A DNA stretch of 64,000 nucleotides, taken from the NCBI GenBank assembly GCA_024743275.1, contig JANSWW010000001.1:414300-478299 (forward strand). Reading direction: 5' to 3'. Of this stretch, positions 513 to 27,514 are shown in pieces. Source of the DNA: Alphaproteobacteria bacterium (GTDB taxonomy: Bacteria; Pseudomonadota; Alphaproteobacteria; JANSWW01). The notes beneath the pieces are model-generated. The model was not told the origin of the DNA. It ran no database searches and was given only the letters and a program-made list of their open reading frames with translations. Positions within the stretch are counted from its first letter, which is position 1. Each line of letters opens with the position of its first letter. Position numbers and translations under genes: made by a program.

Positions 513-1796
513 ATGCTTGACCGCCGCTTCATCGTTGAGAATGCCGACGCCGTCCGTGAGAACTGCAAGAATCGCGGCGTCTCGGTCGACATCGACCGAT
601 TCCTCACCCTGGAGCGGGAGACGCGGGAGAAGGATTCCGAGTTGCAGGTCCTGAACCAGAAGGCCAACGAGGTCTCCAAAACCATCGGCAAGGCGAAGGA
701 CGCGACCGAGCGGGAGGAACGGATCGCCGAGGGCCGTCGGCTGCGCGAAGCACGCGACGCCCTGAAGGAGGAGCTCGAGGCCCTCAACGCGGAATTCCGC
801 GAGGTCCACGAGGCGATCCCGAACATGTCCGACCCGGCGGCCCCCATCGGGGCCACCGACGAGGACAATGTCGAAATCCTTCGCGGGCAGACCCCGGTGC
901 CGTCCTTCGGTTTCGAGCCGAAGGACCATCTGGAGATCGGCAAGGACCTGGATCTCCTGGATTTCGAGACCGCGGCCAAGGTCACCGGTCATGGCTTCTA
1001 CTATCTGAAGAACGAGGGCGCGCTGCTCGAATTGGCGCTGCAGCAATTCGCGGTCAGCAAACTGATGGCCGAAGGGTTCACCGTGCTGACGACCCCGGAT
1101 CTGGCCCGCAACGACGTCTTGAGCGGCACCGGCTTCAGCCCGCGGGGCAACGAGACGCAAATCTACTCGATCGAGGGCACCGATCTCTCCCTGATCGCCA
1201 CCGCCGAAATCACGCTGGGCGGCGTCTACAAGGACACGATCCTCGAAGAGGAGAAGCTGCCGATCCTGCTCTGCGGTCTTTCCCATTGCTTCCGCACCGA
1301 GGCCGGCGCCCATGGAGCCGCGACCCGCGGCCTCTATCGCGTCCACCAGTTCTCCAAAGTCGAGATGTTCGCCTTCACCACGCCGGAACAGTCGGTGGAA
1401 GTCCACGAGACCATGTATCGGATCGAGCGGGAGATCTTCGACGCGCTCGGCCTCGCATACCGGGCGGTGGATATCTGCACCGGGGACCTCGGTGGATCGG
1501 CCTACAAGAAATACGATCTCGAGGCCTGGATGCCGAAGCGCGGCGAGAACGGGAGTTGGGGCGAGGTCACCTCGACCTCCAACTGCACCGACTATCAGGC
1601 GCGGCGCCTCAATATCCGCTGCCGGCCGAAGGGGGAGAAGGGAACCCGTCTGGTCCACACCCTCAACGGCACCGCCGTCTCCATGGCCAGGGCGATCCTG
1701 GCGATCCTCGAGAATTACCAGCAAGCCGACGGGTCGGTCCTGGTGCCGCAGGCGCTGCGGCCCTTCATGGGCGGCAAGGACCGCATCGCGCGCTAA
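513..1796 (+). CDS. serS: seryl-tRNA synthetase
   Basis: 427-aa ORF with an N-terminal coiled-coil arm and a class II aaRS core (motifs around FRTEAG and GSAYKKYDLEAW), full-length match to SerS architecture, and the ATG in good context. Confidence 0.95.
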   Translation: MLDRRFIVENADAVRENCKNRGVSVDIDRFLTLERETREKDSELQVLNQKANEVSKTIGKAKDATEREERIAEGRRLREARDALKEELEALNAEFREVHEAIPNMSDPAAPIGATDEDNVEILRGQTPVPSFGFEPKDHLEIGKDLDLLDFETAAKVTGHGFYYLKNEGALLELALQQFAVSKLMAEGFTVLTTPDLARNDVLSGTGFSPRGNETQIYSIEGTDLSLIATAEITLGGVYKDTILEEEKLPILLCGLSHCFRTEAGAHGAATRGLYRVHQFSKVEMFAFTTPEQSVEVHETMYRIEREIFDALGLAYRAVDICTGDLGGSAYKKYDLEAWMPKRGENGSWGEVTSTSNCTDYQARRLNIRCRPKGEKGTRLVHTLNGTAVSMARAILAILENYQQADGSVLVPQALRPFMGGKDRIAR

Positions 1797-8633: not shown

Positions 8634-9602
8634 TCAGCCGGCCGCCTGGCTCGCCCTTTTTTTCTGGAAACTGTTGATCGCCGACCCGATCTCGGCCGCC
8701 AGCGCTTCTTCCCCTTTTTCGGGGTTGAACGCGGCGGGAACCGCATAGCCGAGCTCGTTCAAGAGGTTGATCGCCTTGGCGTTGGGCCAGTCCCCTTCCC
8801 GGGAAATCGTCTCGTGAATCTCGGCCGCGACCTTGCGCAGGGCGACGCTGACCGGCTTGGACGTTTCGAAGGGCGTGCCCACGACCCGGGCCGCGATATC
8901 GTCGCAGGTCAGGATCAGCCGCTTGAGCATCCCACGAAGCTGGGGCTCCTCGACCTCGCCGCGGAGCGCCGGAACCACCTGGCGCGCGAGGAATCCGATC
9001 TGGAATCCGTTGCGGCGCAACCGCTCGTCATTGATCTGCCCTCGGGTCGCCTGGATCGCCTTCTTCAGCGCCTGTTCATCGACCGGGCGGCCCTTGACCT
9101 TGTCGCCCAAAGTGTTCGGAACCTCGAAGCGCGGGATCGGGTTGGCCTCGTCGGCCCGGCTGCCCTTGCGCCGGTCCGGACCGATGTATTCGGAGGTGAC
9201 GACGAAGGGCTTGCGGCGTTCGGCCATCATTTTCACCTTGGCCAGCAAGGTTGCCGGGGCGGCCGGCTTGACCAGCACGTCGTCGACGCCGGAGTCGACC
9301 ATCGCCTTCAAGAAATGGGCGTCATGCTCGAAGATCATCACGATGATCGGGATATAGGGATTGTCGCCGATCTTCCCGGAGCGCACCTCGCGCACAAGCT
9401 TTCCGGCCGGCGAGCCGAGGAACTTGATATCCGCGATCACCAGATCGGGCAGCGTCTCGCCCAGGGCGTCCGGCATGTTGTCCGGTGAGACAACCGTCCG
9501 AAAACCGCCATAGCCCGCGTCCCGCAGAGTATCGCGCATGGCCTGTCCGATCGATCCATCGGCCTCGCCGAATACGATGTGGAGCCCCTTTTCCACAGCC
9601 AT
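8634..9602 (-). CDS. response regulator with N-terminal receiver-like domain and an uncharacterised helical C-terminal domain
   Basis: The N-terminal roughly 120 aa show a REC fold pattern, with the Asp in VIADIKF and Lys in VLVKP, but the acidic pocket is non-canonical (GEAD). The C-terminal roughly 200 aa have no recognisable output domain. Confidence 0.7.
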   Translation of the reverse strand: MAVEKGLHIVFGEADGSIGQAMRDTLRDAGYGGFRTVVSPDNMPDALGETLPDLVIADIKFLGSPAGKLVREVRSGKIGDNPYIPIIVMIFEHDAHFLKAMVDSGVDDVLVKPAAPATLLAKVKMMAERRKPFVVTSEYIGPDRRKGSRADEANPIPRFEVPNTLGDKVKGRPVDEQALKKAIQATRGQINDERLRRNGFQIGFLARQVVPALRGEVEEPQLRGMLKRLILTCDDIAARVVGTPFETSKPVSVALRKVAAEIHETISREGDWPNAKAINLLNELGYAVPAAFNPEKGEEALAAEIGSAINSFQKKRASQAAG

Positions 9603-9911
9603 TTACTAGTCCCAAAAAAATGTGAGCCGGTTCCTACGACACCGACGGCGCAGGCGTTACGATGCCCCGATACCTTTAACCAACTATTAATCTCGGTGAA
9701 GGAAGTGGCATTTTCTAGAATTAGGATTAACCATCCCTCTGCATCGGCGAAAACGCGGACGCCTTCGCGCCGACGAAGATCTCTTGATTACAGTTTTCTA
9801 TCAACCATTCTTAAATCCATTTAGCAAAACGAGGAGCCATCTTATGGATTCCAATACCATATCGCCACTCGAACCGAAACCGGTCTAGGCATATCGGTTT
9901 TAGATTATGTC

Positions 9912-9944
9912 AAAAAAACCCCGATGGCGCGATATCCATCGGGG
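9912..9944 (-). terminator. rho-independent terminator downstream of the dimethylglycine-dehydrogenase-like gene
   Basis: On the minus strand: 9-bp GC-rich stem CCCCGATGG/CCATCGGGG, an 8-nt loop, then a TTTTTTT run. Confidence 0.8.
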
Positions 9945-9998: not shown

Positions 9999-12428
9999 CT
10001 ACATACGCATGCGTTCGCCCGCACCGTCGAAGGGGGGCTCCGGCAGCCAGGAAGCCGCCCGGCGCACGCCAAGCACCTCGATCTCGAAGCGGCCGTTGGC
10101 GCCATCGGTCAACTCGGCCGGCACATAGCCCAAGGCGAGCGACTTGCCGACATGGTGGGCATAGGCCCCGGAGGTCACATAGCCGACAACCGCATCGTCA
10201 TGCCAGATCGGCTCGTTGCCGATGACATCGGCGTCCTCTGCGTCGACATCGAAGAGAATGAGACGCTTGTCCGGTCCCTCCTCCTTTTCCTTGAGCGCCG
10301 CGTCCCGCCCGACGAACTGGTTCTTGGTCAGGTCGACAAAGCGGCCGAGACCCGCCGCGAACGGTCCGTAGATCGGTCGGTATTCCGTCGCCCAGGACCC
10401 GAACGACTTTTCCAGGCTGAGGGATTTCAGGGCCCGCATCCCGACATTGCGCATCCCGAGGGGCTTTCCGGCCTCCCACAGCATGTCGAAGAGCTGCGCG
10501 TGATACTCCGGGGCCACCCAGATCTCATAGCCAAGATCGCCGGTGAAGGTGACCCGCCCGACCAGGGCCGGAATCATCCCCAGTTCCATCCGGCGGAAGT
10601 CCATGAACCTGAACGCGTCCTTGCCGACATCCGCGTCGGTGATGGCCGCCAGCACCTCGCGCGCCTTCGGTCCGGCGATCGATAGGCCGAGCAGGCCCAG
10701 GCCTTTCGCCTCGACCGTGACACCGCTTTCCGGCAACCGGGCGCGGAAATAGCGCATGTGGTAGTTTTCGCCCGGACCCGAGCCGAAGATCCAGAACTCC
10801 TCGGCGGCCCGCTTCGCCACCGTGAAATCGCCGATGATCTTGCCGAACTCGTTCAGCATCGGCGACAGGGTCATGCGGCCGGTACGGGGCATCTTGTTGG
10901 CGAGAAGACCGCTGAGCCAGCCCTCGGCATCAGGCCCGGTCACCCGGTATTTGGCGAACCCGGAGCTGTCGAGCAGGCCCACCGCCTCACGCACTGCGGC
11001 GCATTCCCGCGCCACGGGGGCGAAGGAGTTGGAGCGCTTGAAGCTAACGATGTCGACCGGCTCCTCGCCCGGATCGGCGAACCAAAGCGGATATTCAAGG
11101 CCGTAGGCCGCGCCGAAAACCGCCCCCATGGCCTTCTGACGGTCGTAGATCGGCGTCGAGCGCAAGGGTCGCGCCGCCGGTAGCTCCTCGTTGGGATAGC
11201 GGATCTGGAAGCGCCGGGAGTAGTTCTCGCGCACCTTGGCGTTGGTATATTTGACGGTGGCGAACTCCCCGAAGCGGGCGACGTCCATGCCCCAGACATC
11301 GAAGCCCGGATCGCCGTTCACCATCCAGTTCGAAAGGGCAAGGCCGACGCCGCCCCCCTGGCTGAAGCCGGCCATAACGCCGCAGGCGCACCAGTAATTG
11401 GTCAGCCCCTGGACCGGACCGACCAGGGGATTGCCATCGGGCGCGAAGGTGAACGGGCCGTTGATGATCTGCTTGATCCCCGCGTTCTGGAAGGCCGGGA
11501 AGTGCTCGAACCCGACCTCCAGCGAGGGGGCGATGCGGTCGAGATCGGGCTGCAGCAGCTCGTGACCGAAATCCCAAGGGGTGTCCTTGGGCTGCCAGGG
11601 CACGCAGGCCTTCTCATAGGTGCCCATCAGCATGCCGCCCCGCTCCTGCCGGAGATAGAGCTCGGCCTCGAAATCGATCGCATGGATCACTTCCTGGCCG
11701 GTCTCGTCGTTAACCGCCTTCACCTCCGGCATGTCCTCGGTCAGGAGATACATGTGCTCCATGGCGAGCACCGGCAGTTCCAACCCGACCATGCGGCCGA
11801 CTTCGCGGGCCCAGAGCCCGCCGGCGTTGACCACATGCTCGGCCTGGATCGTCCCCTCTTCGGTGACGACATTCCAGGTCGCGTCCGCGTTCTGGGTGAG
11901 CTCGACCACACGGTTGCGCAGGTAGATCTCCGCGCCGTTGATCCGCGCGGCCTTGGCGTAGGCGTGGGTCGTTCCGCTGGGATCCAGATGCCCTTCGACG
12001 GGATCGTAGAGCGCGCCGACGAAATGCTTCGGGTCGAGAAGCGGCATCAACTTATGCGCCTCCTCGGCCGTGATCAGTTCGGTCTCCATGCCGAGAACCC
12101 GACCGGTCGCGTGCTGCATCTTCAGGAAGTCCATGCGCTCCCGCGTGCCGGCCAGCGCCACCCCGCCGGTCAGATGCAGGCCGCAGGATTGGCCGGTGAT
12201 CTCTTCCAATTCCTTGTAGAGGGAAATCGTATAGGACTGCAGCGCCGCCACATTGGGGTCGCCGTTCAGCGTATGAAAGCCGCCGGCGGCGTGCCATGTC
12301 GAACCGGAGGTCAGCTCCGAACGTTCGATCAGGACGGCATCCGTCCAGCCCAGTTTGGTCAAGTGATAAAGGACACTGCACCCGACAACGCCGCCGCCGA
12401 TCACCACGACGCGAGCATGCGTTTTCAT
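9999..12428 (-). CDS. FAD-dependent oxidoreductase with C-terminal aminomethyltransferase (GcvT-like) folate-binding domain; dimethylglycine/sarcosine dehydrogenase family
   Basis: Start set at ATG 12428 (MKTHARVVVIGGGVVG, a DAO-type FAD motif). About 810 aa, with a C-terminal GcvT_C-like region. The first 22 codons of the longer ORF have no support. Confidence 0.85.
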   Translation of the reverse strand: MKTHARVVVIGGGVVGCSVLYHLTKLGWTDAVLIERSELTSGSTWHAAGGFHTLNGDPNVAALQSYTISLYKELEEITGQSCGLHLTGGVALAGTRERMDFLKMQHATGRVLGMETELITAEEAHKLMPLLDPKHFVGALYDPVEGHLDPSGTTHAYAKAARINGAEIYLRNRVVELTQNADATWNVVTEEGTIQAEHVVNAGGLWAREVGRMVGLELPVLAMEHMYLLTEDMPEVKAVNDETGQEVIHAIDFEAELYLRQERGGMLMGTYEKACVPWQPKDTPWDFGHELLQPDLDRIAPSLEVGFEHFPAFQNAGIKQIINGPFTFAPDGNPLVGPVQGLTNYWCACGVMAGFSQGGGVGLALSNWMVNGDPGFDVWGMDVARFGEFATVKYTNAKVRENYSRRFQIRYPNEELPAARPLRSTPIYDRQKAMGAVFGAAYGLEYPLWFADPGEEPVDIVSFKRSNSFAPVARECAAVREAVGLLDSSGFAKYRVTGPDAEGWLSGLLANKMPRTGRMTLSPMLNEFGKIIGDFTVAKRAAEEFWIFGSGPGENYHMRYFRARLPESGVTVEAKGLGLLGLSIAGPKAREVLAAITDADVGKDAFRFMDFRRMELGMIPALVGRVTFTGDLGYEIWVAPEYHAQLFDMLWEAGKPLGMRNVGMRALKSLSLEKSFGSWATEYRPIYGPFAAGLGRFVDLTKNQFVGRDAALKEKEEGPDKRLILFDVDAEDADVIGNEPIWHDDAVVGYVTSGAYAHHVGKSLALGYVPAELTDGANGRFEIEVLGVRRAASWLPEPPFDGAGERMRM

Positions 12429-12787
12429 GATTTTCTCCCCTCGATCGGGCCTCTCGAAGGCCCACCTTCCGGATGTGCGATCCCGCACGTACACCCTGGG
12501 ACGTTAGGCGAACCGCCCCCAATTCCTTGTTGATAGACGACAATTGGTGACGGGATCAGGGCTTTTGCCGGCAAATTCCGTATGGTCGACGGCAGAACGG
12601 AAAAAACGCGCTCCGGAGGAACGAAACCACCTTGTGTTAACCTTCTCTTAGGCACACTAGGTTAGTTTCACGCATTGTTAACGAGCAAGGGATCGCAAAC
12701 TGTAGTAGGCGGTCGAAGCTCGACGAACAGAGTGGCCCGGACGGGACGGGCCTTTGGGGTTTTGAAGCGGATCTAAGGGGAAAAACC

Positions 12788-13621
12788 GTGTCGCAGAATA
12801 CCAATCGGCGCCTTTTCACCATCGAAAAACGGGCTCTCGGCCTGCCGGTCGGCGGACCCAGCCTGGCGGAGGGCATGCTGAGCCGGATCGAGGACAGTCT
12901 GGCCCGCATCGAAGCCCAGATGGAATCGATGGACGAGCGGATCGCCGTGACCGTGAGCGAGGCGGCCGCCACCCAAGCGCCGGTCGCAGCGGAAGGCGGC
13001 GCCCGCTCCTCGGCATCCGATGGCGAGATCACCGAAGCCGACGCGATGATGATCCTCGGCATCGATCAGGATCTCCTTGAGACGGCCCAGGCTCTGCGCG
13101 ACGTCGACGATCAGGTGCGGAGCGAAGTCGCCGCCATGGTGCGAATTGTCGGACAGGTCCGCCAGGAAATCGCCAGCATCGCGCCGCAGGAGGAGAAGGA
13201 TCAGGTCGCGGACGCGACCAAGGAACTGGATGCGGTCGTGCAGGCGACCGAAGAAGCGACACATCGCATTCTGGCCGCGGTCGAGAACGCCGAGGGATTC
13301 TTGAAGGAACTCGAAGGCCGATTGGAGGACGAGGCGGACCGGGCTCTGGTCGACCGGGTCGGTCAGGAGATGGTCGAAATCCTCGAAGCCTCGACCTTCC
13401 AGGATCTGACCGGCCAACGCATCCGCAAGGTCGTCGGCACCCTCGACCGGGTGCGCGTGCGGGTTGTCAACCTGGTGAACATTCTGGGACCTGAGTCGTT
13501 GCTCGGCCTGGAAACGGATGGACTCGAGCACGAAGACGACGACGAGGCGGGGCTGCTGGAAGGCCCGCAGATGGACGGGGCCGGCCTTTCCCAGGAGGAT
13601 ATCGACAAGCTCTTCGACTAG
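12788..13621 (+). CDS. cheZ: CheZ-like chemotaxis protein phosphatase
   Basis: 277-aa acidic helical protein carrying the CheZ catalytic signature TFQDLTGQRIRKVV. GTG start with the RBS AAGGGG upstream. Confidence 0.75.
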   Translation: MSQNTNRRLFTIEKRALGLPVGGPSLAEGMLSRIEDSLARIEAQMESMDERIAVTVSEAAATQAPVAAEGGARSSASDGEITEADAMMILGIDQDLLETAQALRDVDDQVRSEVAAMVRIVGQVRQEIASIAPQEEKDQVADATKELDAVVQATEEATHRILAAVENAEGFLKELEGRLEDEADRALVDRVGQEMVEILEASTFQDLTGQRIRKVVGTLDRVRVRVVNLVNILGPESLLGLETDGLEHEDDDEAGLLEGPQMDGAGLSQEDIDKLFD

Positions 13622-13710
13622 CATCGTCGATCGGCTTTTTTCTGCGAATTGAAGAAACAGCATCGCGGCCCGGCGCCCAGCCCCGCCGCACGATGCGGCT
13701 AAGGTTGTAA

Positions 13711-15888
13711 GTGAGAGATTCGAAGGCGTATCCACGCCCCAGCCTCGAGAATACACCCCGCCGACGGTCCAACTCTCCCTCCGACCTTCCGGCCTCAACC
13801 CGGGAGTCCTCGGATTCCCGGGCTCCCGACCAGAGCCCGCCCCTCACCCGCCGCTCCCTCAGCGTTCAGCAGGCCATTCGCGCGATCGGGGTCGCGTTCA
13901 CCGTCGGCCTGATCATCGGCTTGTTCGACGCCTACACCCAGGTCGAACAACAAAGAAAGACCTTCGCGCAAACGGTTCAGAACATCGTCTCGCTGTCCCG
14001 GGTCGGCGCCAGTGACGCGATCTCCAAGCTCGACGTGAAGCTTGCGGAACAAGTCTCCGACGAGATTATCGCGCTCGAACCGGTCGTCCTGGTCGAGATC
14101 CTGTTCCCCAACGGCGATGTCTACGTCGCCCGGTCCAAATCCCCGCCCGAAGCCGGATCCTTGGCCAACCGTCTTGGCGAGAGCGTGTTTTCCGCGTCGG
14201 CGAGCGGGCGGGTGACACTGTTCGACACATGGAACAGCGGCGGCAGCGACGGGCCGGCCGCGGTCGGTGAATTGCATATCGAGCTCGATCGCGTCATGGC
14301 CGGGTCGCAATTGTTGACCATGCTTTTCATCCGCATTGCCGAGGGAGTCCTGCAGGCCGTGGTGATCGGCCTTATCCTCGCTTTGCTATTCCACCGCTTC
14401 CTGAGCCGGCCGCTCCGGGAACTCGGCCAAGAGATCGATCGCATCGACCTCAATGCCCCGGACGCGGACCCGATCGCGGTGCCGGCGGGCCATGAGGAGG
14501 ACGAGATCGGCACCCTTGCGAACCGGATCAACCGGATGATGTCGAAGATCAGCGAGGGACAGCGGGCGTTGCGGCGGCTATCGACCCGGGATGACCTCAC
14601 GAACCTGCCAAACCGCCTGCTGATCCATGAAATGCTGGAACAGGCACTCGCTCGAGCCGACGCCCACAACGGCGTTGTCGCGGTCCTGTTCCTGGACCTG
14701 GACCGCTTCAAGCAGGTGAACGACACGCTTGGCTATGACAGCGGGGACCAACTCCTCCGGGCGGTTGGCAAGCGGATCCAATCTTGTCTGCGCGGCGACG
14801 AGACCTTGGGACGACTGAGCGGGGACGAATTCCTGATCATCGTCGAAAACCTCGACGGCTTCGAACAGGCCGCCAGCGTGAGTCGCCGGTTGGAAAGGAC
14901 GCTGGCCAGCAGTTTCAGGATCGACGGGCACAGTCTGCATGTCACCGCATCGATCGGCATTTCCCTGTTCCCGACCGACAGCATCACCCCGAAGGAACTG
15001 CTGAACCAGGCCGATGTCGCGATGTACAACGCGAAGGCCCAGGGCGGCGGCTTCCAGTTCTTCTCAAACGAGATGAGCGAACGCGCTCAGGTCCGGCTCA
15101 AGATCGAGACCAGCCTGCGGCTTGCGCTGGAACGGCAGGAATTCGAACTCTTCTATCAGCCCAAAATCAGTCTCGACACCGGCGACCTGAAGGGCTGCGA
15201 GGCGTTGATCCGCTGGCGCCATGAGGGCGAGTTCATCTCCCCCGACCGCTTCATCCCGATCGCCGAGCAGACCGCGCTGATCCTGCCGATCGGCGAATGG
15301 GTCCTGTCCGAGGCCTGCCGGGTGATCGCCAAATGGGACCGGGAGGGCTACAGCGTCCCGATGTCGGTCAATGTCTCGGCCCGCCAGATCGTCCCGGGCT
15401 CCTTCGTTCAATATGTCCGGGCCTGTATCGACGCCCACGGCATCAGGCCTGAACTCCTCGAACTGGAGATCACGGAAACCGCCGTTATCCAGCGCCTCGA
15501 GGAATTCCGGGACATCATCGCGGAATTGCGGCTGATGGGAATCGGCATCGCCATCGACGATTTCGGCACCGGCTATTCGAGCCTCGCCTATGTCCGGGAT
15601 ATCGATGCCACAACCCTCAAGATCGACCGGCATTTCATCAAAGACCTGCCGGAGGACGGCACCCTGGTCTCGGTGATCCTCAATCTCGCCCGGGAGCTCA
15701 GGATCGACGTCGTCGCCGAGGGCGTCGAGAACCAGGAGCAGGTGGACTGGCTGAAACGGCACGGTTGCGCCATGGCCCAGGGTCACCTGTTCAACCGCGC
15801 CGTGACCGAGCATCAATTCCAGCGCCAGTATCTCTCGTCCGCCCAGGAGGATGTTCCGGCGTCCCGGTCCTTCGGCGAAGCGCCTTAA
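13711..15888 (+). CDS. membrane-anchored GGDEF-EAL (diguanylate cyclase/phosphodiesterase) signalling protein
   Basis: TM helix AIRAIGVAFTVGLIIGLF, then a periplasmic segment, a second TM/HAMP-like region, a GGDEF domain with the variant signature RLSGDEF (SGDEF), and an EAL domain (EALIRW, DDFGTGYSS, EGVE). GTG 13711 is the only in-frame start. It gives an unusual Pro/Ser/Arg-rich 50-aa N-terminal tail, so the start is uncertain. Confidence 0.85.
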   Translation: MRDSKAYPRPSLENTPRRRSNSPSDLPASTRESSDSRAPDQSPPLTRRSLSVQQAIRAIGVAFTVGLIIGLFDAYTQVEQQRKTFAQTVQNIVSLSRVGASDAISKLDVKLAEQVSDEIIALEPVVLVEILFPNGDVYVARSKSPPEAGSLANRLGESVFSASASGRVTLFDTWNSGGSDGPAAVGELHIELDRVMAGSQLLTMLFIRIAEGVLQAVVIGLILALLFHRFLSRPLRELGQEIDRIDLNAPDADPIAVPAGHEEDEIGTLANRINRMMSKISEGQRALRRLSTRDDLTNLPNRLLIHEMLEQALARADAHNGVVAVLFLDLDRFKQVNDTLGYDSGDQLLRAVGKRIQSCLRGDETLGRLSGDEFLIIVENLDGFEQAASVSRRLERTLASSFRIDGHSLHVTASIGISLFPTDSITPKELLNQADVAMYNAKAQGGGFQFFSNEMSERAQVRLKIETSLRLALERQEFELFYQPKISLDTGDLKGCEALIRWRHEGEFISPDRFIPIAEQTALILPIGEWVLSEACRVIAKWDREGYSVPMSVNVSARQIVPGSFVQYVRACIDAHGIRPELLELEITETAVIQRLEEFRDIIAELRLMGIGIAIDDFGTGYSSLAYVRDIDATTLKIDRHFIKDLPEDGTLVSVILNLARELRIDVVAEGVENQEQVDWLKRHGCAMAQGHLFNRAVTEHQFQRQYLSSAQEDVPASRSFGEAP

Positions 15889-15892
15889 GGCG

Positions 15893-16612
15893 ATGATGGA
15901 CAGTTTCAAAAACACCGGCGACGACCCCGCTTCCATCGCCGCCGTCTTCGGCGCCTCAGGCACCATCGGAACGGCGTTCGTCACCGCCCTCGCGGACTCG
16001 GGTGCCTTCGACCGGGTGATCGGTTTCTCCCGCTCGTCGACACCACGTGTGGATCTTCTGGACGAGGCCAGCATCGCCGGCGCCGCGACGGCTTTGGCGG
16101 AGGCGGGCACCCCGCGCCTCATCATCGACGCCACCGGCTTTCTCCACGGGGACGGGTTCATGCCCGAAAAGAGCTGGCGCGACCTGTCGGCGGATCACAT
16201 GGCCCACGCCTTCGCCGTCAACGCCATTGGGCCGGCACTGCTGATGAAGCATCTGCTGCCGCTGCTGCCGCGTCAGGGCAAATCCGCCTTCGTCACCCTC
16301 AGCGCGAAGGTCGGCGGGATCGCCGATAACCGGTTCGGAGGCTGGTACAGTTATCGCGCCTCCAAGGCCGCGCTCAATCAGATGGTGAAGACCGCATCCA
16401 TCGAACTGGCCCGCAAGCGGCCCGAGGCCCTCTGCCTCGCCCTCCATCCCGGCACCACCGAAAGCCCGCTGTCCGATCCCTTCGCCAAGCAGGGCCTGAC
16501 CGTCCGGTCGCCGGCCGAGGCCGCTGCCCTGATGCTCGATGTCATCGATCGGAAAACGGCGGCGGACAGTGGCGGCTTCTTCGACTATTCCGGCGCCGCC
16601 CTGCCCTGGTAG
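15893..16612 (+). CDS. SDR family short-chain dehydrogenase/reductase
   Basis: GASGTIG Rossmann motif and a YxxxK catalytic dyad (YSYRASK). The start was placed at the ATG just after the stop of the upstream gene. Confidence 0.8.
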   Translation: MMDSFKNTGDDPASIAAVFGASGTIGTAFVTALADSGAFDRVIGFSRSSTPRVDLLDEASIAGAATALAEAGTPRLIIDATGFLHGDGFMPEKSWRDLSADHMAHAFAVNAIGPALLMKHLLPLLPRQGKSAFVTLSAKVGGIADNRFGGWYSYRASKAALNQMVKTASIELARKRPEALCLALHPGTTESPLSDPFAKQGLTVRSPAEAAALMLDVIDRKTAADSGGFFDYSGAALPW

Positions 16613-16706
16613 CAGCCTCCGGCTTCGCCTCACCCGGTTCGATCACCGGCGGAAAGCGAAAGAGGCGCCGAGGCGTTTGACCGCCGCGACGCCTCCGTCT
16701 CTCCCC

Positions 16707-19700
16707 CTACAGAACAACCGGATCGGCCACCGGATCCTGGCCCAGAAGAGCGATCTGCTCGACCGGAAGCTGGCTGCCATAGACCGCGAAGTCGGAGATC
16801 ACACCATCGAACTCGTCGCGCGCGTCGAGCGGACGGTTGTCCCGACGATGCGCTCCGCTGGCGCCGAGCACCAGGGAGAGATTGTTGTCGGCGAGGCCCT
16901 GGGTGAACCCGACCTCCTGATCGACCAGAGCACCGTCCAGATAGAGCTGGAAGCCCGCCGCCCCGAAGCTGATGGCGACGTCGTGCTCCTGCCCTTCCTG
17001 GATCGCGTTCTTGGCCGAGCGGAGATATTCCGATTTGTCCTCGGATTGGAGCCGGACCTCAAGACGGCCGTTCTTCACCCAGGCTGTCATATGACCCGGA
17101 ATGTCCTGGTGGCTGTAATCCTTGGAGAACAGCGCGTTGGATCCGCCCGTGTCATCGGCGGTGAAGCTCAGCGCAATCGTTCCGTTGGCCTGCTCCATCG
17201 CGGCGAAATGACCGACCTCGATCTGGCCACCGTCCTCGCCGTCGAAGGTGAGCGCCCGCGGAATGGCGAAGGCGGCTCCGGTGGGCAGGCTCGACGGCCC
17301 GATCAGATCCGGCGACGGCACAAAGGGATCGTCCGTCGCAAGCTGACCGTAGAGCGGCGTCACCGCCTCGGCATACTCGTCGATTGTGTCGACGATGCCA
17401 TAGGCCGGCCCGGCGTCGTTTTCGATATCGCTTTCCCGGACGAAGTCGCCGAACACCTGGATCGTGCCGAGGTCGTCGTATTGATGCGCCCCGCCATTGC
17501 GGCCCTGATTGGAGCGCACATGAATCACCGAATGGTCGGGGACGTTGTCGCCGTCGGCGTCGCCCATGGTGATCCTGTAGACCTCCGCCGTGTGGCCGAC
17601 GACGGCGATGCTGTCGCCCTCCGCCCGGTTGAAGTCGAGGATCACATCGTTGCCGAGGCTGTCGACCCAGTGGTCGTGATGCTCGTTGTTTTCCCCCGCG
17701 ACCTGGTGCCATTCGATCTTCCGGTTCTCGGGGTCCGTATGTTCGGTAAGGAAATGCGGTTTGGCGTTGATCAGCGGATTGAACATGAAGAGATCCGCGC
17801 CGCCGCCACCGATCAGGACGTCGTCGCCCTCGATCGGCTGACCGGGGAAATAGGTCAGCGTCACCGGATCGATTTCGTAGTCCGGGTCCTCGCGCGGGTC
17901 GTAGTTCTGGGCCAGTTTCGGCTCGCGGGCATCGGCCCGGCTGAGGATAACGTCATCGCCATCCCCGCCATAGACCGTGTCCTCGCCATGGCCGCCGTCG
18001 AGCGTGTCGTTGCCACCGTCTCCGGAGACCGAGTCGTTGCCGTAGCCGGCGTCGACCACATCGTCCTCGGACCCGCCGGAGACCTGGTCGTCGCCCGCCC
18101 CGGCCTCGATGGTGTCGGCACCGCCGTCGCCGTTGATCACGTCATCGCCGAGCGGCACCGGATCCGGCTTGAACGCGGTGCCGAGAACGCCCGGCCCGTT
18201 GGCGGCGAGCGAGAGAACCTGTTCGGCGTTGAGCGCGTCCTCCGGCCGGTAACCGCCCCAGAAGCCGACGCCGGCGACCGCCCCGTCGAGGAAGTCGCGG
18301 AAATCACGGTCGGTGGTGATCACCCCGGCCGTGTCGGTATCGTCGACCCGGTGGGTGTCCGCCCCGATGATCCAGGGGTTGTCGTTGGCGATCAGGAAGC
18401 CGGCCTTGTAGTCGTCGATATCCTGCCGGCCTTCCTTGGTGCGGAAGGCACCGTTGTCCAACTGACTGCCGTTGACATAGACCTCAACGCCGTTGGTCCC
18501 GAAAGTGACCGCGACATGGGCCCATTCGCCCTCGGTCAGGACCGCCTCCCGGGTCTCCCAGCTCGAATTGCGGTCGCCATTGCCCGGCGCGATGCGGACG
18601 AAAAGCTTGCCGTCGTCCTGGCCGAGCCGGAAATGGCCGCCGTCGTCGCTACCGCTCTGATCCTTGTTGACGAAGGCCTGACGGTCGCCGATGTCATCGA
18701 CCCGGACCCAGAGCGCCACCGTCTGATTCGTGGTCTCATAGGCCTGGCTATGTTCGACCATGGCGAAGCTGGACCCGTCGAAAGTCAGAGCGGGTGCGCC
18801 CCCCAACACGGTGGGACCGCTGGTGGTGGGAACGCCGTCCACCGCGATATAGGGGGCGCGCTCATGGACGGTGTAGAAACTGCCGTCCTGAGTGCCTTGC
18901 GCGTCGACAACGGCGCCGTTGGCAAGGGCATCGAAGGCCCAATAAGAGACGGCGTCATGGGGCGTTGTCTTGGCGACCGGGGCGGCCTTGTCGCCGTACA
19001 GCATGTCGGCACCGGCACCGCCATTGACCGTGTCGCCGCCATCACCGCCATAGAGGATGTCGTTGGCCTCGGTCCCCGAAACGACCTCCGCCGTCCCCTC
19101 GGTCGTCGTCTCGCGTACGATCACCCTTTCCGCGAAGGGAGTCACCGGCTGATCCGGCTCCCGGCTTTCCGGCGCGAAGAAATCGTCGAAAAGGTCGAGC
19201 GGCGAGGCGGCCGGAGCGATGAAGTCCAACGCCCGGACATTGATGTCGGTGAAATCCTCCGGCGCCGTCTCGGACGGCAGCGGCGACGGATCGATCGCGT
19301 CCAGCAACTCGTCGATATGGTCGATGACGCCATAGGTCACCCGCCGGTCGACCTGGACATCGTCCTCGGTCACCGCATCGCCGAAGACCACGATATGGCC
19401 AAGCAGATCGCCATTATGAGCGCCGCCATTGCGGCCCTGGTTGGAATAAAGCCGGATGATGGTTTCCGCGTCGCCGTCGCCGTTCACATCCCAGGAGGCG
19501 AAGCGCGCGTCGACCGTGTGGCCGTAGATCACGATCTTGTCGCCCTCGGCCTTGTTGAAGTCGGCGACCACGTCGTTGCCGATCGAATCGACCCAGTGAT
19601 CGTGGACGTTGTTGTTCTCGCCGGCGACCCGCTTCCAGTTGATCGTGCCGTCTTCCCGGACATGTTCCAGGATGATGTCCCGCTTGGCGTTGATCAGCGG

Positions 19701-20942
19701 CTTGAAATAGAAGACGTCGGCCCCGGCTCCGCCAACCAGCACGTCGTCCGCCACGAAGGGCTGATCCGCATAGAGCCGGTTGTTGGCGCCGATCTCGCCC
19801 GCCGGATCGTCGACCGCCGGCAGATAGGCCTGGGCGATCTCCGGTTCCCCCGCATCGCTTTCCGAGATGAGGATGTCGTTGCCGGCGCCGCCTTGCAGCA
19901 CGTCGCTGCCGCGCCCGCCGTCGAGAACATCGTCCCCGTCGCCGCCGAGAAGGTCGTCGTCGCCGTCCCCGCCATTGAGGTCGTCCTGGCCGCCCGCGCC
20001 CGACAGCGTGTCGTTGCCCGCATCGGCGTGGATCTTGTCATGGGTCTCGGTACCGTTCAGCGCGTCGTCGGTGGGCACCACCGGGATCACCGGCTCCGGC
20101 GTCGTCGACGGCGCGGTCCCGGCGGCGAGTGCCGCGACCTCCTCCGGGGTCAGCGCGTCTTCCGGGGCGTAGCCGCCCCACAGCGCGACACCGTCGATCT
20201 CGCCCGAGAACGGATCGCGGGTCCAGCTGTCGGCGATCTCCACCGCCGAGCCGGTGTCACGGGTTCCGCCGGTGTCGCGACCCAGCACGATGGGCTTGTC
20301 GTTGGTCAGAAGGTGATACTCGGTATAGGTCGCCGGCGTGTCGTTGCGGCCCTCGATCTGGGTGAAGGCGTCGTCGGCGATCACCGTCCCGTTGACCTGG
20401 GCCGTTACGCCCGACGGCCCGAAGGTGAGCGCCACATGGCTCCATTCACCGGGCGTGAACACAACGTCGTTGGTCCGGAAGGCGTGATTGCCGCCCCCGT
20501 CGCCCGGGGCGACGCGAAAGGACAGCCGGCCGGCGTCGAGACCGACCCGGAGATGGCCGCCATCGTCCGATCCGCTCTCGTCCTTGGCCAGGAAGGTCTG
20601 ACGCCCGTCGATCGACATCGGTCGGACCCACATCGCCACCGTGCCATAGAGCACCTCATAGCTCGGATCGTGCGGGATGTAGCCGAAACGGTCACCGCCG
20701 AGGCTGAGCGCGCCCGTTTCCGATCCCGGCGCGCCGCCGGTGAGCGGGGCCGCGACCTCGGCGCCGCTGTTCCGGGCATGCATGCTGCCACCCGGTCCGC
20801 CCATGGCGTCCGTGAGCGTGGCACCGCTCGCCGTCTCGAAATCGAAGTAAAGGATCGGAGCCGGTACGCTCACCGCCGGCGTCGGCGACACGCTGGGAGA
20901 CGCCGGGACGATGTTCTCGATAAGACCTTCTGTCGTTTCCAT
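16707..20942 (-). CDS. giant (1411 aa) calcium-binding RTX-repeat protein with three LamG/concanavalin-like lectin domains; putative secreted adhesin or surface protein
   Basis: Start set at ATG 20942 (METTEG). Multiple blocks of GGxGxDxL nonapeptide repeats. Three homologous roughly 150-aa LamG-like segments (KDESGSDDGGHLRVG.., KDQSGSDDGGHFRLG.., SKDYSHQDIPGHMTAWV..). Two homologous ENNxHDHWVDSxGNDV modules. No N-terminal signal peptide is evident. Confidence 0.9.
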   Translation of the reverse strand: METTEGLIENIVPASPSVSPTPAVSVPAPILYFDFETASGATLTDAMGGPGGSMHARNSGAEVAAPLTGGAPGSETGALSLGGDRFGYIPHDPSYEVLYGTVAMWVRPMSIDGRQTFLAKDESGSDDGGHLRVGLDAGRLSFRVAPGDGGGNHAFRTNDVVFTPGEWSHVALTFGPSGVTAQVNGTVIADDAFTQIEGRNDTPATYTEYHLLTNDKPIVLGRDTGGTRDTGSAVEIADSWTRDPFSGEIDGVALWGGYAPEDALTPEEVAALAAGTAPSTTPEPVIPVVPTDDALNGTETHDKIHADAGNDTLSGAGGQDDLNGGDGDDDLLGGDGDDVLDGGRGSDVLQGGAGNDILISESDAGEPEIAQAYLPAVDDPAGEIGANNRLYADQPFVADDVLVGGAGADVFYFKPLINAKRDIILEHVREDGTINWKRVAGENNNVHDHWVDSIGNDVVADFNKAEGDKIVIYGHTVDARFASWDVNGDGDAETIIRLYSNQGRNGGAHNGDLLGHIVVFGDAVTEDDVQVDRRVTYGVIDHIDELLDAIDPSPLPSETAPEDFTDINVRALDFIAPAASPLDLFDDFFAPESREPDQPVTPFAERVIVRETTTEGTAEVVSGTEANDILYGGDGGDTVNGGAGADMLYGDKAAPVAKTTPHDAVSYWAFDALANGAVVDAQGTQDGSFYTVHERAPYIAVDGVPTTSGPTVLGGAPALTFDGSSFAMVEHSQAYETTNQTVALWVRVDDIGDRQAFVNKDQSGSDDGGHFRLGQDDGKLFVRIAPGNGDRNSSWETREAVLTEGEWAHVAVTFGTNGVEVYVNGSQLDNGAFRTKEGRQDIDDYKAGFLIANDNPWIIGADTHRVDDTDTAGVITTDRDFRDFLDGAVAGVGFWGGYRPEDALNAEQVLSLAANGPGVLGTAFKPDPVPLGDDVINGDGGADTIEAGAGDDQVSGGSEDDVVDAGYGNDSVSGDGGNDTLDGGHGEDTVYGGDGDDVILSRADAREPKLAQNYDPREDPDYEIDPVTLTYFPGQPIEGDDVLIGGGGADLFMFNPLINAKPHFLTEHTDPENRKIEWHQVAGENNEHHDHWVDSLGNDVILDFNRAEGDSIAVVGHTAEVYRITMGDADGDNVPDHSVIHVRSNQGRNGGAHQYDDLGTIQVFGDFVRESDIENDAGPAYGIVDTIDEYAEAVTPLYGQLATDDPFVPSPDLIGPSSLPTGAAFAIPRALTFDGEDGGQIEVGHFAAMEQANGTIALSFTADDTGGSNALFSKDYSHQDIPGHMTAWVKNGRLEVRLQSEDKSEYLRSAKNAIQEGQEHDVAISFGAAGFQLYLDGALVDQEVGFTQGLADNNLSLVLGASGAHRRDNRPLDARDEFDGVISDFAVYGSQLPVEQIALLGQDPVADPVVL

Positions 20943-21158
20943 GGAACCCTCCGTTAGGTGTCGCACCCCTTGCGAATAAGAAACGGAGACTCAATTCCAT
21001 GATTTATTAAAGAATCGCAAAAGATAAATCAGCCATTACTTTACCTGTATTTTGCAAAGAAATTTGCATAAAATACGTTCTATCGGCGACGCCATGGCCC
21101 ATTGCCGGGGCACAGCATCTATCGAAGTCTGGCGGCGCCTCACTTTGACGGAGCGCCT

Positions 21159-21401
21159 ATGCATCCTCTCTTCAACAATATCCGGGAGCCGGTGGTCTGC
21201 GCCAAATGCGCCGACGAATTCCAGGCCGGCGCCACGGACGCCGCATCCTTGCAGGAATACACGCGGATGGATGTCGGCTTCACCGACCGGGGACTTCAGG
21301 TCTGGTGCCGGCGACATCAGACCAACGTGGTCCACATCCACTTCGCGGGGGCCACGCCGGAAGCCGACTTCCGCTGCCTGGAGAAGAAGCCGAAGAACTG
21401 A
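21159..21401 (+). CDS. hypothetical small Cys-containing protein (80 aa)
   Basis: ATG 21159 is preceded by GGAG at -8. GC3-rich codon usage. Four Cys (CxxC plus two distal) suggest a possible Zn ribbon. No family recognised. Confidence 0.45.
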   Translation: MHPLFNNIREPVVCAKCADEFQAGATDAASLQEYTRMDVGFTDRGLQVWCRRHQTNVVHIHFAGATPEADFRCLEKKPKN

Positions 21402-21408
21402 TTCGCCG

Positions 21409-21567
21409 CTAGCGCTTCGCGATGATGTAGACCGCGTGGATGATCCCGGGAAAGTAGCCGAGCAGAGTCAGGAGGATGTTGAGCCAGAAATGGAGGCCGA
21501 TGCCGACCTGCAGGAACACGCCCAGAGGCGGCAACAGAATGGCGATCAGAATCCGGAGGATGTCCAT
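21409..21567 (-). CDS. Pmp3/YqaE (UPF0057) family small membrane proteolipid
   Basis: 52-aa two-TM peptide MDILRILIAILLPPLGVFLQ...IHAVYIIAKR at the 3' end of a 758-aa antisense shadow ORF. Only this terminal segment has a recognisable family signature. Confidence 0.75.
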   Translation of the reverse strand: MDILRILIAILLPPLGVFLQVGIGLHFWLNILLTLLGYFPGIIHAVYIIAKR

Positions 21568-25441: not shown

Positions 25442-26302
25442 ATGTTAGTCATTGGCGGCGCGATCGGTGTCTTGATCGCCGTTTACGGTTCCTACATCGC
25501 CATGGGCGGCAAAATGGCCGTGCACTGGCAGCCCTTCGAATACACGCTGATCGGCGGGGCGGCGATCTTCGCCTTTATCATCGCCAACCCGATGCATACG
25601 CTGAAAGCGACGATCGGGCACGTGATGGCGGCGATCAAGGGGCCGAAATACAAGAAGGACGACTATCTCGAACTCCTGTCCCTGCTCTACGCCATTTTCA
25701 AGCTGGCGAAGACGAAGGGGATGCTGGCGATCGAAAGTCATGTGGAGCGGCCGGAGGAAAGCTCGCTATTCCAGTCCTTCCCGAAATTCGCCGCCAACCA
25801 CCACGCGCTCGAATTCCTGTGCGACTATCTGCGAATGATGACGCTCGGCACCGACAACCCGCACGAGATGGAAACGCTGCTCGACGAGGAAATCGAGACC
25901 CATCACCACGAAGAGATGGCCGTCGGTGACGCGGTGCAAACCATGGGCGACGGCTTTCCGGCGCTGGGCATCGTGGCCGCCGTGCTGGGCGTGATCAAAA
26001 CCATGGGCTCGATCACCGAGCCGCCGGAGGTTCTGGGGAAACTGATCGGCGCCGCTCTGGTCGGCACGTTCTTCGGGATCTTCATGGCTTACGGCTTCGT
26101 GGCGCCCCTCGCCTCGGCGATCAAGGGCGTCATCGCGGCCGACGGCAAGTATTTCGCGGTGATCAAGTCCGGCCTGCTCGCCCATATGTCCGGCTATGCG
26201 CCCGCGGTCTCCGTGGAGTTCGCGCGAAAACAGCTCTGGAGCCATGTCCGCCCCACCTTCTACGAGGTGGAAGAGGCCGTGGCGGCCCTGCCGCCGGTGT
26301 AA
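25442..26302 (+). CDS. motA: flagellar motor stator protein MotA
   Basis: 286 aa. Four TM helices with a large cytoplasmic loop. MotA/TolQ/ExbB channel family. Directly followed by motB. Confidence 0.9.
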   Translation: MLVIGGAIGVLIAVYGSYIAMGGKMAVHWQPFEYTLIGGAAIFAFIIANPMHTLKATIGHVMAAIKGPKYKKDDYLELLSLLYAIFKLAKTKGMLAIESHVERPEESSLFQSFPKFAANHHALEFLCDYLRMMTLGTDNPHEMETLLDEEIETHHHEEMAVGDAVQTMGDGFPALGIVAAVLGVIKTMGSITEPPEVLGKLIGAALVGTFFGIFMAYGFVAPLASAIKGVIAADGKYFAVIKSGLLAHMSGYAPAVSVEFARKQLWSHVRPTFYEVEEAVAALPPV

Positions 26303-26341
26303 TCGGCCCAACCCTCTAGGAGTTCAGGAAGAGCCAGCGCC

Positions 26342-27514
26342 ATGTCCGGGGACAATCACGGCGAAATCGTCATCAAAAAGGTCAAAAAGGGCGGTCATGG
26401 TGGACACCATGGCGGCGCTTGGAAGGTGGCCTATGCCGACTTCGTGACCGCGATGATGGCCTTCTTCCTGCTCTTGTGGCTGCTGAACGCGACGACGGAA
26501 GAGCAGAAGCTCGGCATCTCGAACTATTTCGATCCGACGGCGATCTCGCGGTCCACCCGCTCAGGCTCGGGCGGCGTGCTCGGGGGCATCTCGGTCACCG
26601 TTCCGGGCGCCCAGAAGTCCCCGTCCTCCCCGCCGACCATCTCGACTCCGGTGGCCGCGCGCCCCAACGCGGAGCAGACCGAGGCGATCGAGGCGGACTC
26701 AGACGATCCCGAGAACATCGAAAGCCGCTTTGGCGCCGACGAGGACGCCTTCGGGTCCAGCCAGTTCGAGTTAGGCACCGGCGATCTGGAAGGCGACAAG
26801 GGCAATTCCAGGGAACCGGGCACCGGCGGGACCGAGATCAAGTTCGGCGAAGGTGAGGAACAGGGCCTCACCCAGATCCGCGAGGGCGAAGGCGAGGATC
26901 AGGGCCTCTCCGACCGAAATGTCCGAGAAATCGCCAGGGACCAGCTCGACCGGCTGATCGAGGAACGCGAGCGCCAGGAATTCGAGAAGGTCGAGGCGCA
27001 GCTGAAGCAGGCGATCCAGGACACACCCGAACTGGAGGAACTGAAGGACAATCTCATCGTCGAGCAAACGCCGGAGGGCCTCAGAATCCAGATCGTCGAC
27101 CAGGAACAGCGCGCCATGTTCCCGAACGGCAGCGCCGACATGTTCGGTTATACCCAAGAGCTGATCGGCCAGGTCGCGACCATCGTCCAGCGGGTCCCCA
27201 ACAAGATGACGATCACCGGGCATACCGATGCTCTGCAGTTTGCCCCTGGCTCCGGCTATTCCAACTGGGAGCTTTCGGCCGACCGCGCGAATTCCAGCCG
27301 CCGGGCGCTGATCGATTCAGGCATCCCGGCCGAACGGATCGCCTGGGTCGTCGGCAAGGCGGACAACGATCCGCTGTTCCCGGAAGAGCCGACGTCGGCC
27401 CGGAACCGCCGCATCTCCATTGTGCTGCTGCGCGACTCGGTCCTGCGGGAGAGGCTCAACTCCTCCGAAGTCATCGAGGAGAGACAAAACAACGCCGCCG
27501 TCGTTTCCCAGTAG
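26342..27514 (+). CDS. motB: flagellar motor protein MotB (OmpA-like peptidoglycan-binding C-terminus)
   Basis: N-terminal TM with conserved Asp (YADFVTAMMAFF), a long Gly/Glu-rich linker, and a C-terminal OmpA-like domain (ITGHTD...SADRA). Confidence 0.9.
   Translation: MSGDNHGEIVIKKVKKGGHGGHHGGAWKVAYADFVTAMMAFFLLLWLLNATTEEQKLGISNYFDPTAISRSTRSGSGGVLGGISVTVPGAQKSPSSPPTISTPVAARPNAEQTEAIEADSDDPENIESRFGADEDAFGSSQFELGTGDLEGDKGNSREPGTGGTEIKFGEGEEQGLTQIREGEGEDQGLSDRNVREIARDQLDRLIEERERQEFEKVEAQLKQAIQDTPELEELKDNLIVEQTPEGLRIQIVDQEQRAMFPNGSADMFGYTQELIGQVATIVQRVPNKMTITGHTDALQFAPGSGYSNWELSADRANSSRRALIDSGIPAERIAWVVGKADNDPLFPEEPTSARNRRISIVLLRDSVLRERLNSSEVIEERQNNAAVVSQ

Follow-up and report, generated by a model that had tools for sequence, protein, structure and literature searches.

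We analyzed a gene on the minus strand of a 64-kb stretch of an alphaproteobacterial genome (assembly GCA_024743275.1, contig JANSWW010000001.1; the whole stretch is hereafter called the window). It encodes a protein of 1411 amino acids (aa) with LamG domains and RTX repeats and is referred to as the LamG-RTX gene. The gene is intact and encodes a large acidic modular calcium-binding protein of the RTX class. It belongs to a widespread marine family, in which it is nothing unusual, and the sole new element in it is a domain that we designate module X. The best overall explanation, which we consider probable, is that the product is an RTX-class calcium-binding exoprotein of the form [LamG-RTX-X] x2 + LamG. 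It would be exported by an unlinked type I secretion system (T1SS), would fold outside the cell in a calcium-driven manner, and would expose LamG ends of the lectin type.

Architecture and family of the LamG-RTX protein

In the list of open reading frames (ORFs), the 1411-aa protein and its stop codon are encoded at 16707..20942 on the minus strand, with an ATG start codon at 20942; the frame is open over 16707..20966. The product is an exact match to NCBI MCR9254871.1 (locus tag NXI16_02110), which is named 'MAG: hypothetical protein' there. A Shine-Dalgarno sequence, GGAGGG, is located at 20952-20947, and this site, the ATG and the first codons are kept in both orthologous loci (L001 and L003). 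The minus strand was taken as the coding strand because the GC contents at its three codon positions are 0.70/0.45/0.83. On the plus strand, a 1472-aa ORF (16539-20957) runs antisense across the whole LamG-RTX gene. Most likely it is not a gene but a high-GC shadow ORF, since it failed the codon-position GC filter that the minus strand passed.

The protein possesses no Cys residue and has an isoelectric point (pI) of 4.11, with 248 acidic (D+E) versus 78 basic (K+R) residues. As a first-pass annotation of this DNA had stated, no N-terminal signal peptide was found in the protein, and it has no transmembrane segment: the N-terminus is not hydrophobic and the maximum Kyte-Doolittle hydropathy over 19 residues is 1.41.

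The same annotation had described three LamG domains, two RTX blocks and two copies of a conserved module (ENNxHDHWVDSxGND...GRNGGAH). In the Pfam search, Laminin_G_3 matched three stretches with 144.7 bits (cutoff 27.6), and Laminin_G_2 (57.8 bits, cutoff 22.9) and Laminin_G_1 (39.3 bits, cutoff 24) were also detected, so that the LamG profiles score above their curated thresholds. HemolysinCabind matched seven stretches with 116 bits (cutoff 23). Together with the motif positions, this shows the tandem GGxGxDxUx calcium-binding nonapeptides of an RTX protein. The three LamG domains, the RTX repeats and both copies of the module, which is module X, were all recovered; the RTX blocks number three and not two (Table 1). 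In addition, each X module holds one extra RTX-like turn beyond these blocks.

The layout of the protein is [LamG - RTX - X - linker] x2 + LamG. In a self-comparison, aa 14-581 and aa 653-1220 could be aligned and are 43% identical (E 9e-146). The DNA of the two cassette copies is 64% identical over 1384 nt, and the third LamG domain is 24% identical to the first (E 4e-10). The internal duplication that had been proposed is therefore present. Its length had been estimated at about 1.5 kb, and the period is about 640 aa (1.9 kb).

The gene had also been called an orphan. This does not hold, since 4018 proteins match the 1411-aa protein at E<=1e-10, among them full-length orthologues with 80% (P0002, locus L001) and 70% (P0003, locus L003) identity. 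Among the relatives with a source name, most bear the label 'LamG-like jellyroll fold domain-containing protein'; their sources are marine Alphaproteobacteria, Planctomycetota and other groups. The same LamG-RTX-X-LamG-RTX-X-LamG layout is found in a Roseibium protein (P0029), and the [LamG-RTX-X] cassette occurs 1-7 times per protein, with seven copies in P0233 (3680 aa). Duplication is a building principle of the family and not a quirk of the window gene.

Within the window protein, the two X copies are 50% identical, and each is 75-88% identical to the copy at the same position in P0002 and P0003. Because the positional orthologues are closer than the two copies of one protein, the two-cassette structure derives from an old tandem duplication that preceded the split from the 70-80% orthologues. 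The X copies within P0021, P0029 and P0004 (loci L004 and L008 among them) are 94-100% identical, which indicates that the cassettes of these lineages were amplified or homogenised independently and recently, by amplification or gene conversion.

Module X

Module X is a domain of about 190 aa (about 200 aa) that follows an RTX block and carries the motifs SRSDAGEP, GGxGxDxF, GENxxxHDHW, GHT and SxQGxxGAHxxD. A sequence search gave no match in the PDB, and no Pfam or NCBIfam match was found at E up to 10, save for one RTX-like turn. When an AlphaFold2 (AF2) model of X alone was compared with the PDB by Foldseek, no match was obtained (best E 0.56). Module X is an undescribed domain family, for which there is no Pfam or NCBIfam model and no detectable relative of solved structure.

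At E<=1e-3, an exhaustive phmmer search of 1.84 billion representative proteins detected X in only 335 clusters, and a protein carries 1-7 copies of it. We annotated LamG, RTX and X in 362 retrieved proteins with our own hidden Markov models (HMMs), and 444 of the 559 X copies sit directly after an RTX block. Free-standing RTX-X proteins of about 320 aa, named 'calcium-binding proteins', occur in Bradyrhizobium, Roseomonas and cyanobacteria. Both X copies of the 1411-aa protein match the X HMM and have the invariant residues. Over 489 X copies, the residues D400, G404, G405, D409, E442, N443, H447, H449, W450, D468, H475, T476, S500, Q502, H509 and D512 (numbering of the window protein) are conserved at 98-100%, and the DxNGDG loop is also conserved. 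Four invariant histidines (H447, H449, H475 and H509) are thus present in X. They suggest a metal site, and X probably also holds one, to judge from these histidines together with the acidic residues and the DxNGDG loop.

The AF2 model of RTX+X had a predicted local distance difference test score (pLDDT) of 89.8 and a predicted template modelling score (pTM) of 0.88, and the model of X alone had a pLDDT of 85.5, with a core above 94. In the RTX+X model, the pattern of strands does not break at the boundary between the RTX block and X; X itself consists mainly of beta-strands and has a few short helices. The top structures by Foldseek for this model were RTX proteins only, namely RTX block V of CyaA, serralysin-type protease chains and the R-modules of AlgE. 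CyaA block V was the best match (E 4e-5), with TM-scores of only 0.3-0.35, and the AlgE R-modules matched with TMt 0.35-0.44.

Three candidates for X were considered, namely an alpha-carbonic anhydrase (HxHW / GHTVD strings), a cupin (G-x5-HxH string) and the FrpC self-processing module. Their folds were absent among the Foldseek hits listed for both models, and these candidates were dropped.

The NCBIfam model of the T1SS C-terminal target domain, TIGR03661, was weakly matched by 21 of the 63 short RTX-X proteins, below threshold and with a best E of 0.0017. In P0163, the sole member in which the position of this match was looked at, it lies inside X. TIGR03661 gave no match with the X modules of the 1411-aa protein itself.

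Like CyaA (PDB 5CVW, 9P0C and 6SUS; PMC9120197), the window protein carries several separate RTX blocks. Folding of CyaA from the C- to the N-terminus on a template, dependent on a C-terminal cap, is established (PMC9120197, PMC10511787), and this logic suits the fixed order of RTX and then X. Because of this order, X may be the cap or folding nucleus of each RTX block. In contrast to the CyaA cap, X is far larger (about 190 aa), has four invariant histidines and gave no match when searched alone. A more far-reaching reading, which we consider rather unlikely, is that this new domain has a four-histidine metal site and works as an autonomous and reusable 'RTX cap / type I secretion target' unit.

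As a gene, the LamG-RTX gene adds one more uncharacterised RTX/LamG exoprotein of marine Alphaproteobacteria, and little changes. What the analysis mainly contributes is an outline of the [LamG-RTX-X] cassette and of X. The X family is rare but confidently modelled and is absent from the domain databases searched; by position, X goes with RTX blocks and, in two genomes, also with ABC-HlyD exporters. Should X turn out to cap folding, to promote secretion or to bind a metal, several hundred large 'hypothetical' or 'calcium-binding' proteins would be easier to annotate, and the treatment of T1SS substrates whose C-termini are non-canonical would benefit. If X is indeed a reusable cap or target unit, bacteria could use RTX-X cassettes to join any number of lectin domains in one chain and export them. 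Proteins with a folded LamG domain at the extreme C-terminus would then be exportable, and the accepted rules for T1SS substrates would be extended.

Export route, function and alternative explanations

Substrates of T1SSs leave the cell C-terminus first, and RTX blocks fold upon calcium. The window protein has no Sec or Tat signal, is acidic and is free of Cys, which is the combination sought in T1SS substrates. Such acidic, Cys-free and signal-less proteins have been reported among RTX lipases, proteases and S-layer proteins (PMC3034196), and the RTX exoproteins of Roseobacter are poor in K and R (PMC3933643). The likeness to T1SS RTX exoproteins (PMC3034196) extends to the GGxGxD nonapeptide blocks, the acidic pI and the C-terminus, which is acidic and then hydrophobic. 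A substrate gene can also be unlinked from its transporter genes, as with PrsDE of rhizobia, an unlinked T1SS that serves several substrates (PMC3034196).

An acidic residue followed by three uncharged hydrophobic residues at the very end was found in 37% of 358 family proteins. The background was 10.7% of internal hexamers and 3/47 of the other window genes, and the motif is enriched about 3.5-fold in the family. The tail of the window protein (...QDPVADPVVL) fits this motif, but the last 200 aa of the protein are a LamG domain. The tails of the orthologues (...SDPLIG and ...VPEIV) are of the same type.

Two relatives are encoded beside exporter genes. In L015 (186-7362), an ABC_membrane+ABC_tran gene and an HlyD gene come after a family gene and share its strand; the product of the family gene ends in ...RTX-X-LamG-RTX-X plus a terminal RTX block, with the tail ...QDDSIA. 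In a Devosia locus (L027, 9869-15656), an RTX(21)-X-X protein adjoins HlyD and ABC exporter genes and ends directly after X (...LEGSIA). Module X occupies the position of the T1SS C-terminal target domain in this protein. The first-pass annotation, which had left the export route unclear, had named a canonical C-terminal T1SS signal with a linked secretion operon elsewhere as the finding that would speak against it. At the family level, a part of this was observed, in the two relatives beside ABC and HlyD genes and in the acidic-then-hydrophobic C-termini. On the basis of these relatives, of the Cys-free, acidic and signal-less protein and of the tail motif, we infer that export via a T1SS encoded elsewhere in the genome is the best-supported route. 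A literature search for LamG, RTX and type I secretion together returned nothing.

In Ca. Rhodobacter oscarellae (L007, 15549-17894), a second RTX protein (PPC + Peptidase_M10_C + HemolysinCabind, 781 aa) is encoded 700 bp downstream of a family member. This shows that RTX genes can cluster without transporter genes.

The proposed mechanism would proceed as follows. The protein would stay unfolded in the low-calcium cytoplasm and would be exported C-terminus first through a T1SS (ABC exporter, HlyD-type adaptor and TolC-like channel) encoded elsewhere in the genome. It would be recognized by an uncleaved C-terminal signal that ends in the acidic-then-hydrophobic tail. In calcium-rich seawater, X would come out before its RTX block, fold, and cap or template the RTX beta-roll. 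Folding of RTX-X would ratchet the chain outward, and the upstream LamG domain would then fold last. In addition to its part in folding, X would carry a metal site. The three LamG jelly rolls would be the working ends, most probably lectin-type binders of a polysaccharide or another surface ligand, and their binding could provide an adhesion, matrix or particle-capture role. That the LamG domains act as ligand or glycan binders is suggested by analogy with their superfamily.

Several observations weigh against this explanation. As the first-pass annotation had stated, no export genes lie nearby: ABC exporter, HlyD and TolC were not found among the 20 window ORFs scanned with Pfam (all within 5010-44084), and a Walker A/LSGGQ motif screen of the whole window gave no fused exporter. 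No T1SS gene was found in the two orthologous contigs (L001 and L003) or within 10 kb of five further family loci, which makes seven loci in all. Both of the T1SS-linked relatives belong to other subtypes: one has an RTX block at its C-terminus, and the other ends with X. Only about 11 residues lie beyond the terminal LamG domain of the window protein, in place of the RTX block and signal of about 60 aa of canonical substrates. Its RTX blocks are internal with X after each, which is also unlike known T1SS RTX exoproteins. As for X, a capping role leaves the four invariant histidines unexplained, and the X-only model matches no solved RTX cap.

The main rival explanation, which we regard as unlikely, is that X is a metal-dependent catalytic domain, e.g., a hydrolase or lyase of algal or matrix polymers, and that LamG is substrate-binding. 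The protein would then be a secreted enzyme comparable to AlgE with its A- and R-modules. The invariance of H447, H449, H475, H509, E442, D468 and D512 over 489 copies would suit an active site, as would their location in segments of the AF2 model outside regular secondary structure. X modelled alone resembles no known cap, it occurs up to 7 times per protein and also alone after RTX, and other glycan-binding domains (PA14 and a sialidase-type lectin) are present in family members. However, X resembles none of the enzyme families in Pfam, NCBIfam or the PDB, 6-7 tandem copies are unusual for a catalytic domain, and the recurrent weak match is to a secretion-target domain and not to an enzyme. 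The mannuronan C5-epimerases of the AlgE type (PDB 2ML1 and 2AGM) are likewise secreted and calcium-dependent and combine variable numbers of a functional module and an RTX module. In contrast to them, the partner in the window protein is a LamG jelly roll and not a beta-helix A-module, an epimerase signature is absent, and X is not an R-module by sequence.

It is more doubtful still that the protein is not a T1SS substrate and is released by lysis, by vesicles or by another system, or is intracellular. A C-terminal LamG domain would block T1SS recognition in this case. The protein does end in folded-domain sequence without a terminal RTX block, and T1SS neighbours are present at 0/5 of the examined loci with a terminal LamG domain (window, L001, L003, L004 and L008). 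However, RTX blocks require millimolar calcium for folding, which makes an intracellular role implausible (PMC3034196), and the protein lacks a Sec or Tat signal that could take it into type II or type V secretion. Its tail motif and its acidic, Cys-free make-up suit a T1SS substrate, and the precedent of PrsDE documents that a T1SS with several substrates can be unlinked (PMC3034196).

The first-pass annotation had interpreted the gene as a horizontally acquired surface or adhesin gene under separate regulation. In its full form, this reading supposes a recently acquired orphan adhesin gene with foreign composition and a separate, possibly silencer-type regulation. The upstream region is in fact the most AT-rich spot of the window, and the gene does not share an operon with genes of related function. 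The family is scattered over Alphaproteobacteria, Planctomycetota and Cyanobacteria, so that ancient transfers are likely. However, the composition is not anomalous: the GC content of the gene is 0.63-0.68 (window mean 0.64), and the GC content at third codon positions (GC3) is like that of the neighbours (0.79-0.91), as are the other codon positions. The order Pmp3, gene, SDR, GGDEF-EAL, CheZ is the same in the window and in both orthologous contigs, so that identical flanking genes surround the 80% and 70% orthologues. The AT-rich segment itself is kept in L001, and there are thousands of homologues. Recent acquisition is thus largely refuted, and we consider it very improbable. Because of the synteny in L001 and L003 and the native GC3, the LamG-RTX gene is regarded as resident on the chromosome and vertically inherited. 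The broader notion of a surface or secreted protein under an AT-rich regulatory region of its own is sensible; horizontal acquisition was not supported.

A pore-forming RTX cytotoxin of the HlyA/CyaA type, to which the NCBIfam RTX_toxin and EhxA models and CyaA in the PDB point through the repeats, is refuted by the failed family cutoffs (NF033943, 83 bits versus 1000; NF033203, 64 versus 2000; nonapeptides only) and the missing hydrophobic pore-forming domain, with no acyltransferase or rtxC-like neighbour either, and has practically no probability left.

Two other known classes were tried and rejected. A serralysin-type RTX metalloprotease did not fit, because NF035945 gave 46 bits against a cutoff of 500 on the repeats only, and neither Peptidase_M10 nor Peptidase_M10_C matched. 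The large RTX adhesins (LapA, MpIBP and FrhA/VCA0849) are similar in that they join lectin-type ligand-binding domains with RTX repeats, and X is weakly and recurrently similar to TIGR03661. Unlike them, the window protein has no match to an N-terminal retention module or a run of Ig-like extender domains in Pfam and NCBIfam and its C-terminus is LamG; the sub-threshold TIGR03661 similarity is confined to X of relatives. A LapA-type adhesin was therefore rejected.

The RTX-like exoproteins of Roseobacter (PaxA of Ruegeria pomeroyi and a 533-aa RTX protein of Phaeobacter; PMC3933643, PMC2953401) are also marine and alphaproteobacterial, poor in basic residues and of uncharacterised function, and they are abundant in exoproteomes. 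LamG or X modules are not described in these two reports, and the likeness lies in the RTX repeats and the composition.

Neighbouring genes and the AT-rich upstream region

The coordinates of the domains, the adjacent genes and the upstream region are summarized in Table 1. Both flanking ORFs of the first-pass annotation, the small Cys-containing ORF and the Pmp3 gene, are present.

Table 1. Features of the LamG-RTX gene and its immediate surroundings (positions in the window)
Feature	Position	Strand	Basis or remark
LamG domain 1	20088..20867, aa ~26-285	-	Pfam Laminin_G_3 and own LamG HMM coordinates
RTX block 1, ~7 nonapeptides	19863..20069, aa ~292-360	-	HemolysinCabind best stretch 333-362; motif list; PDB CyaA match 294-361
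Module X copy 1	19275..19874, aa 357-556	-	own X HMM; invariant E442, H447, H449, W450, D468, H475, T476, H509, D512
Short RTX block, inter-cassette linker	18993..19100, aa ~615-650	-	HemolysinCabind E 4.9e-8 on linker; NCBIfam serralysin stretch 617-648
LamG domain 2	18168..18962, aa ~661-925	-	Laminin_G_3 best stretch 729-875; own LamG HMM
RTX block 2	17943..18155, aa ~930-1000	-	HemolysinCabind; PDB CyaA match 933-1007; motif list
Module X copy 2	17334..17951, aa 998-1203	-	own X HMM; 50% identical to copy 1, 78-88% to positional orthologues
LamG domain 3, tail ...LLGQDPVADPVVL	16710..17300, aa ~1215-1411	-	Laminin_G_2 and Laminin_G_1 at 1278-1392; tail is candidate type I secretion signal
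AT-rich 5' region, presumed promoter and leader	20943..21126	-	lowest GC in window
80-aa four-Cys ORF (CxxC plus two), GC3 0.79	21159-21401	+	NCBI MCR9254872.1, hypothetical
Pmp3 gene	21409-21567	-	E 5e-23

The 80-aa four-Cys ORF gave no Pfam or NCBIfam match. In L001 the intergenic gap measures only 171 bp and lacks this ORF, and in L003 no counterpart can be recognised. The ORF looks like an insertion of about 300 bp that is specific to this lineage, and it does not form a conserved unit with the LamG-RTX gene.

Pfam matches among the window neighbours included a GGDEF-EAL protein, SDR, Pmp3, an MFS transporter, an amidohydrolase, MotAB, TRAP transporter components, ParC and RNase J, and the genes at 45-60 kb resemble a nuo operon, as judged by gene order and sizes alone. 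Overall, the window resembles core chromosome. A plasmid origin was rejected, as Megablast of 14-24 kb against PLSDB detected short fragments of MFS and EAL genes only. Deep synteny with Roseibium via the SDR neighbour was also rejected, since the SDR proteins are just 28% identical and the resemblance is a coincidence. The neighbourhood is rich in motility and cyclic di-GMP genes (CheZ, GGDEF-EAL and MotA/MotB, at 12788-15888 and 25442-27514), which are in the same order in both orthologous contigs. This could hint at a link to a motile-sessile switch.

The AT-rich upstream region that had been pointed out before was confirmed. Among 100-nt segments of the 64 kb, the one with the lowest GC content is at 20911-21126 (0.28, against a mean of 0.638 and an sd of 0.054), and the GC content falls below 0.45 at five places only. 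About 130 bp of this region is kept in the 80% orthologue locus (L001) and not in the 70% one. Rfam gave no credible match to the leader, with one 16-bit chance hit, and no sigma-70 consensus promoter was found upstream of the LamG-RTX gene. The only sigma-70-like match in the region, TTAACA-18-TATAGT (10/12), is at 21639-21610 on the minus strand, upstream of Pmp3. Since Pmp3 and the LamG-RTX gene are on the same strand, read-through co-transcription is conceivable in L001, with its gap of 171 bp.

A leader hairpin was predicted at 20941-21000, in which CUCCGUU (20988-20982) pairs with AACGGAG (20955-20949) and covers the Shine-Dalgarno site; pairing of AUGGAAU with GUUCCAU covers the start codon. 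An equivalent 11-bp stem is present in the 80% orthologue (L001, 9953-9996). At 76 nt, the hairpin was not better than shuffled sequence (z -1.45), which counts against it, and the fold over 146 nt had a lower energy than all shuffles (z -3.2). These predictions provide a lead from two sequences that an anti-Shine-Dalgarno hairpin may gate translation. The first hairpin of the 146-nt fold is a perfect palindrome, TGCAAA-N4-TTTGCA, at 21068-21053 on the minus strand; it may be an operator site, and in L001 its conservation is only loose.

The second most AT-rich intergenic stretch is located at 9654-9939 (minimum GC 0.38), between a response-regulator-like gene (8634-9602) and a DAO/GCV_T fusion gene (9999-12494).

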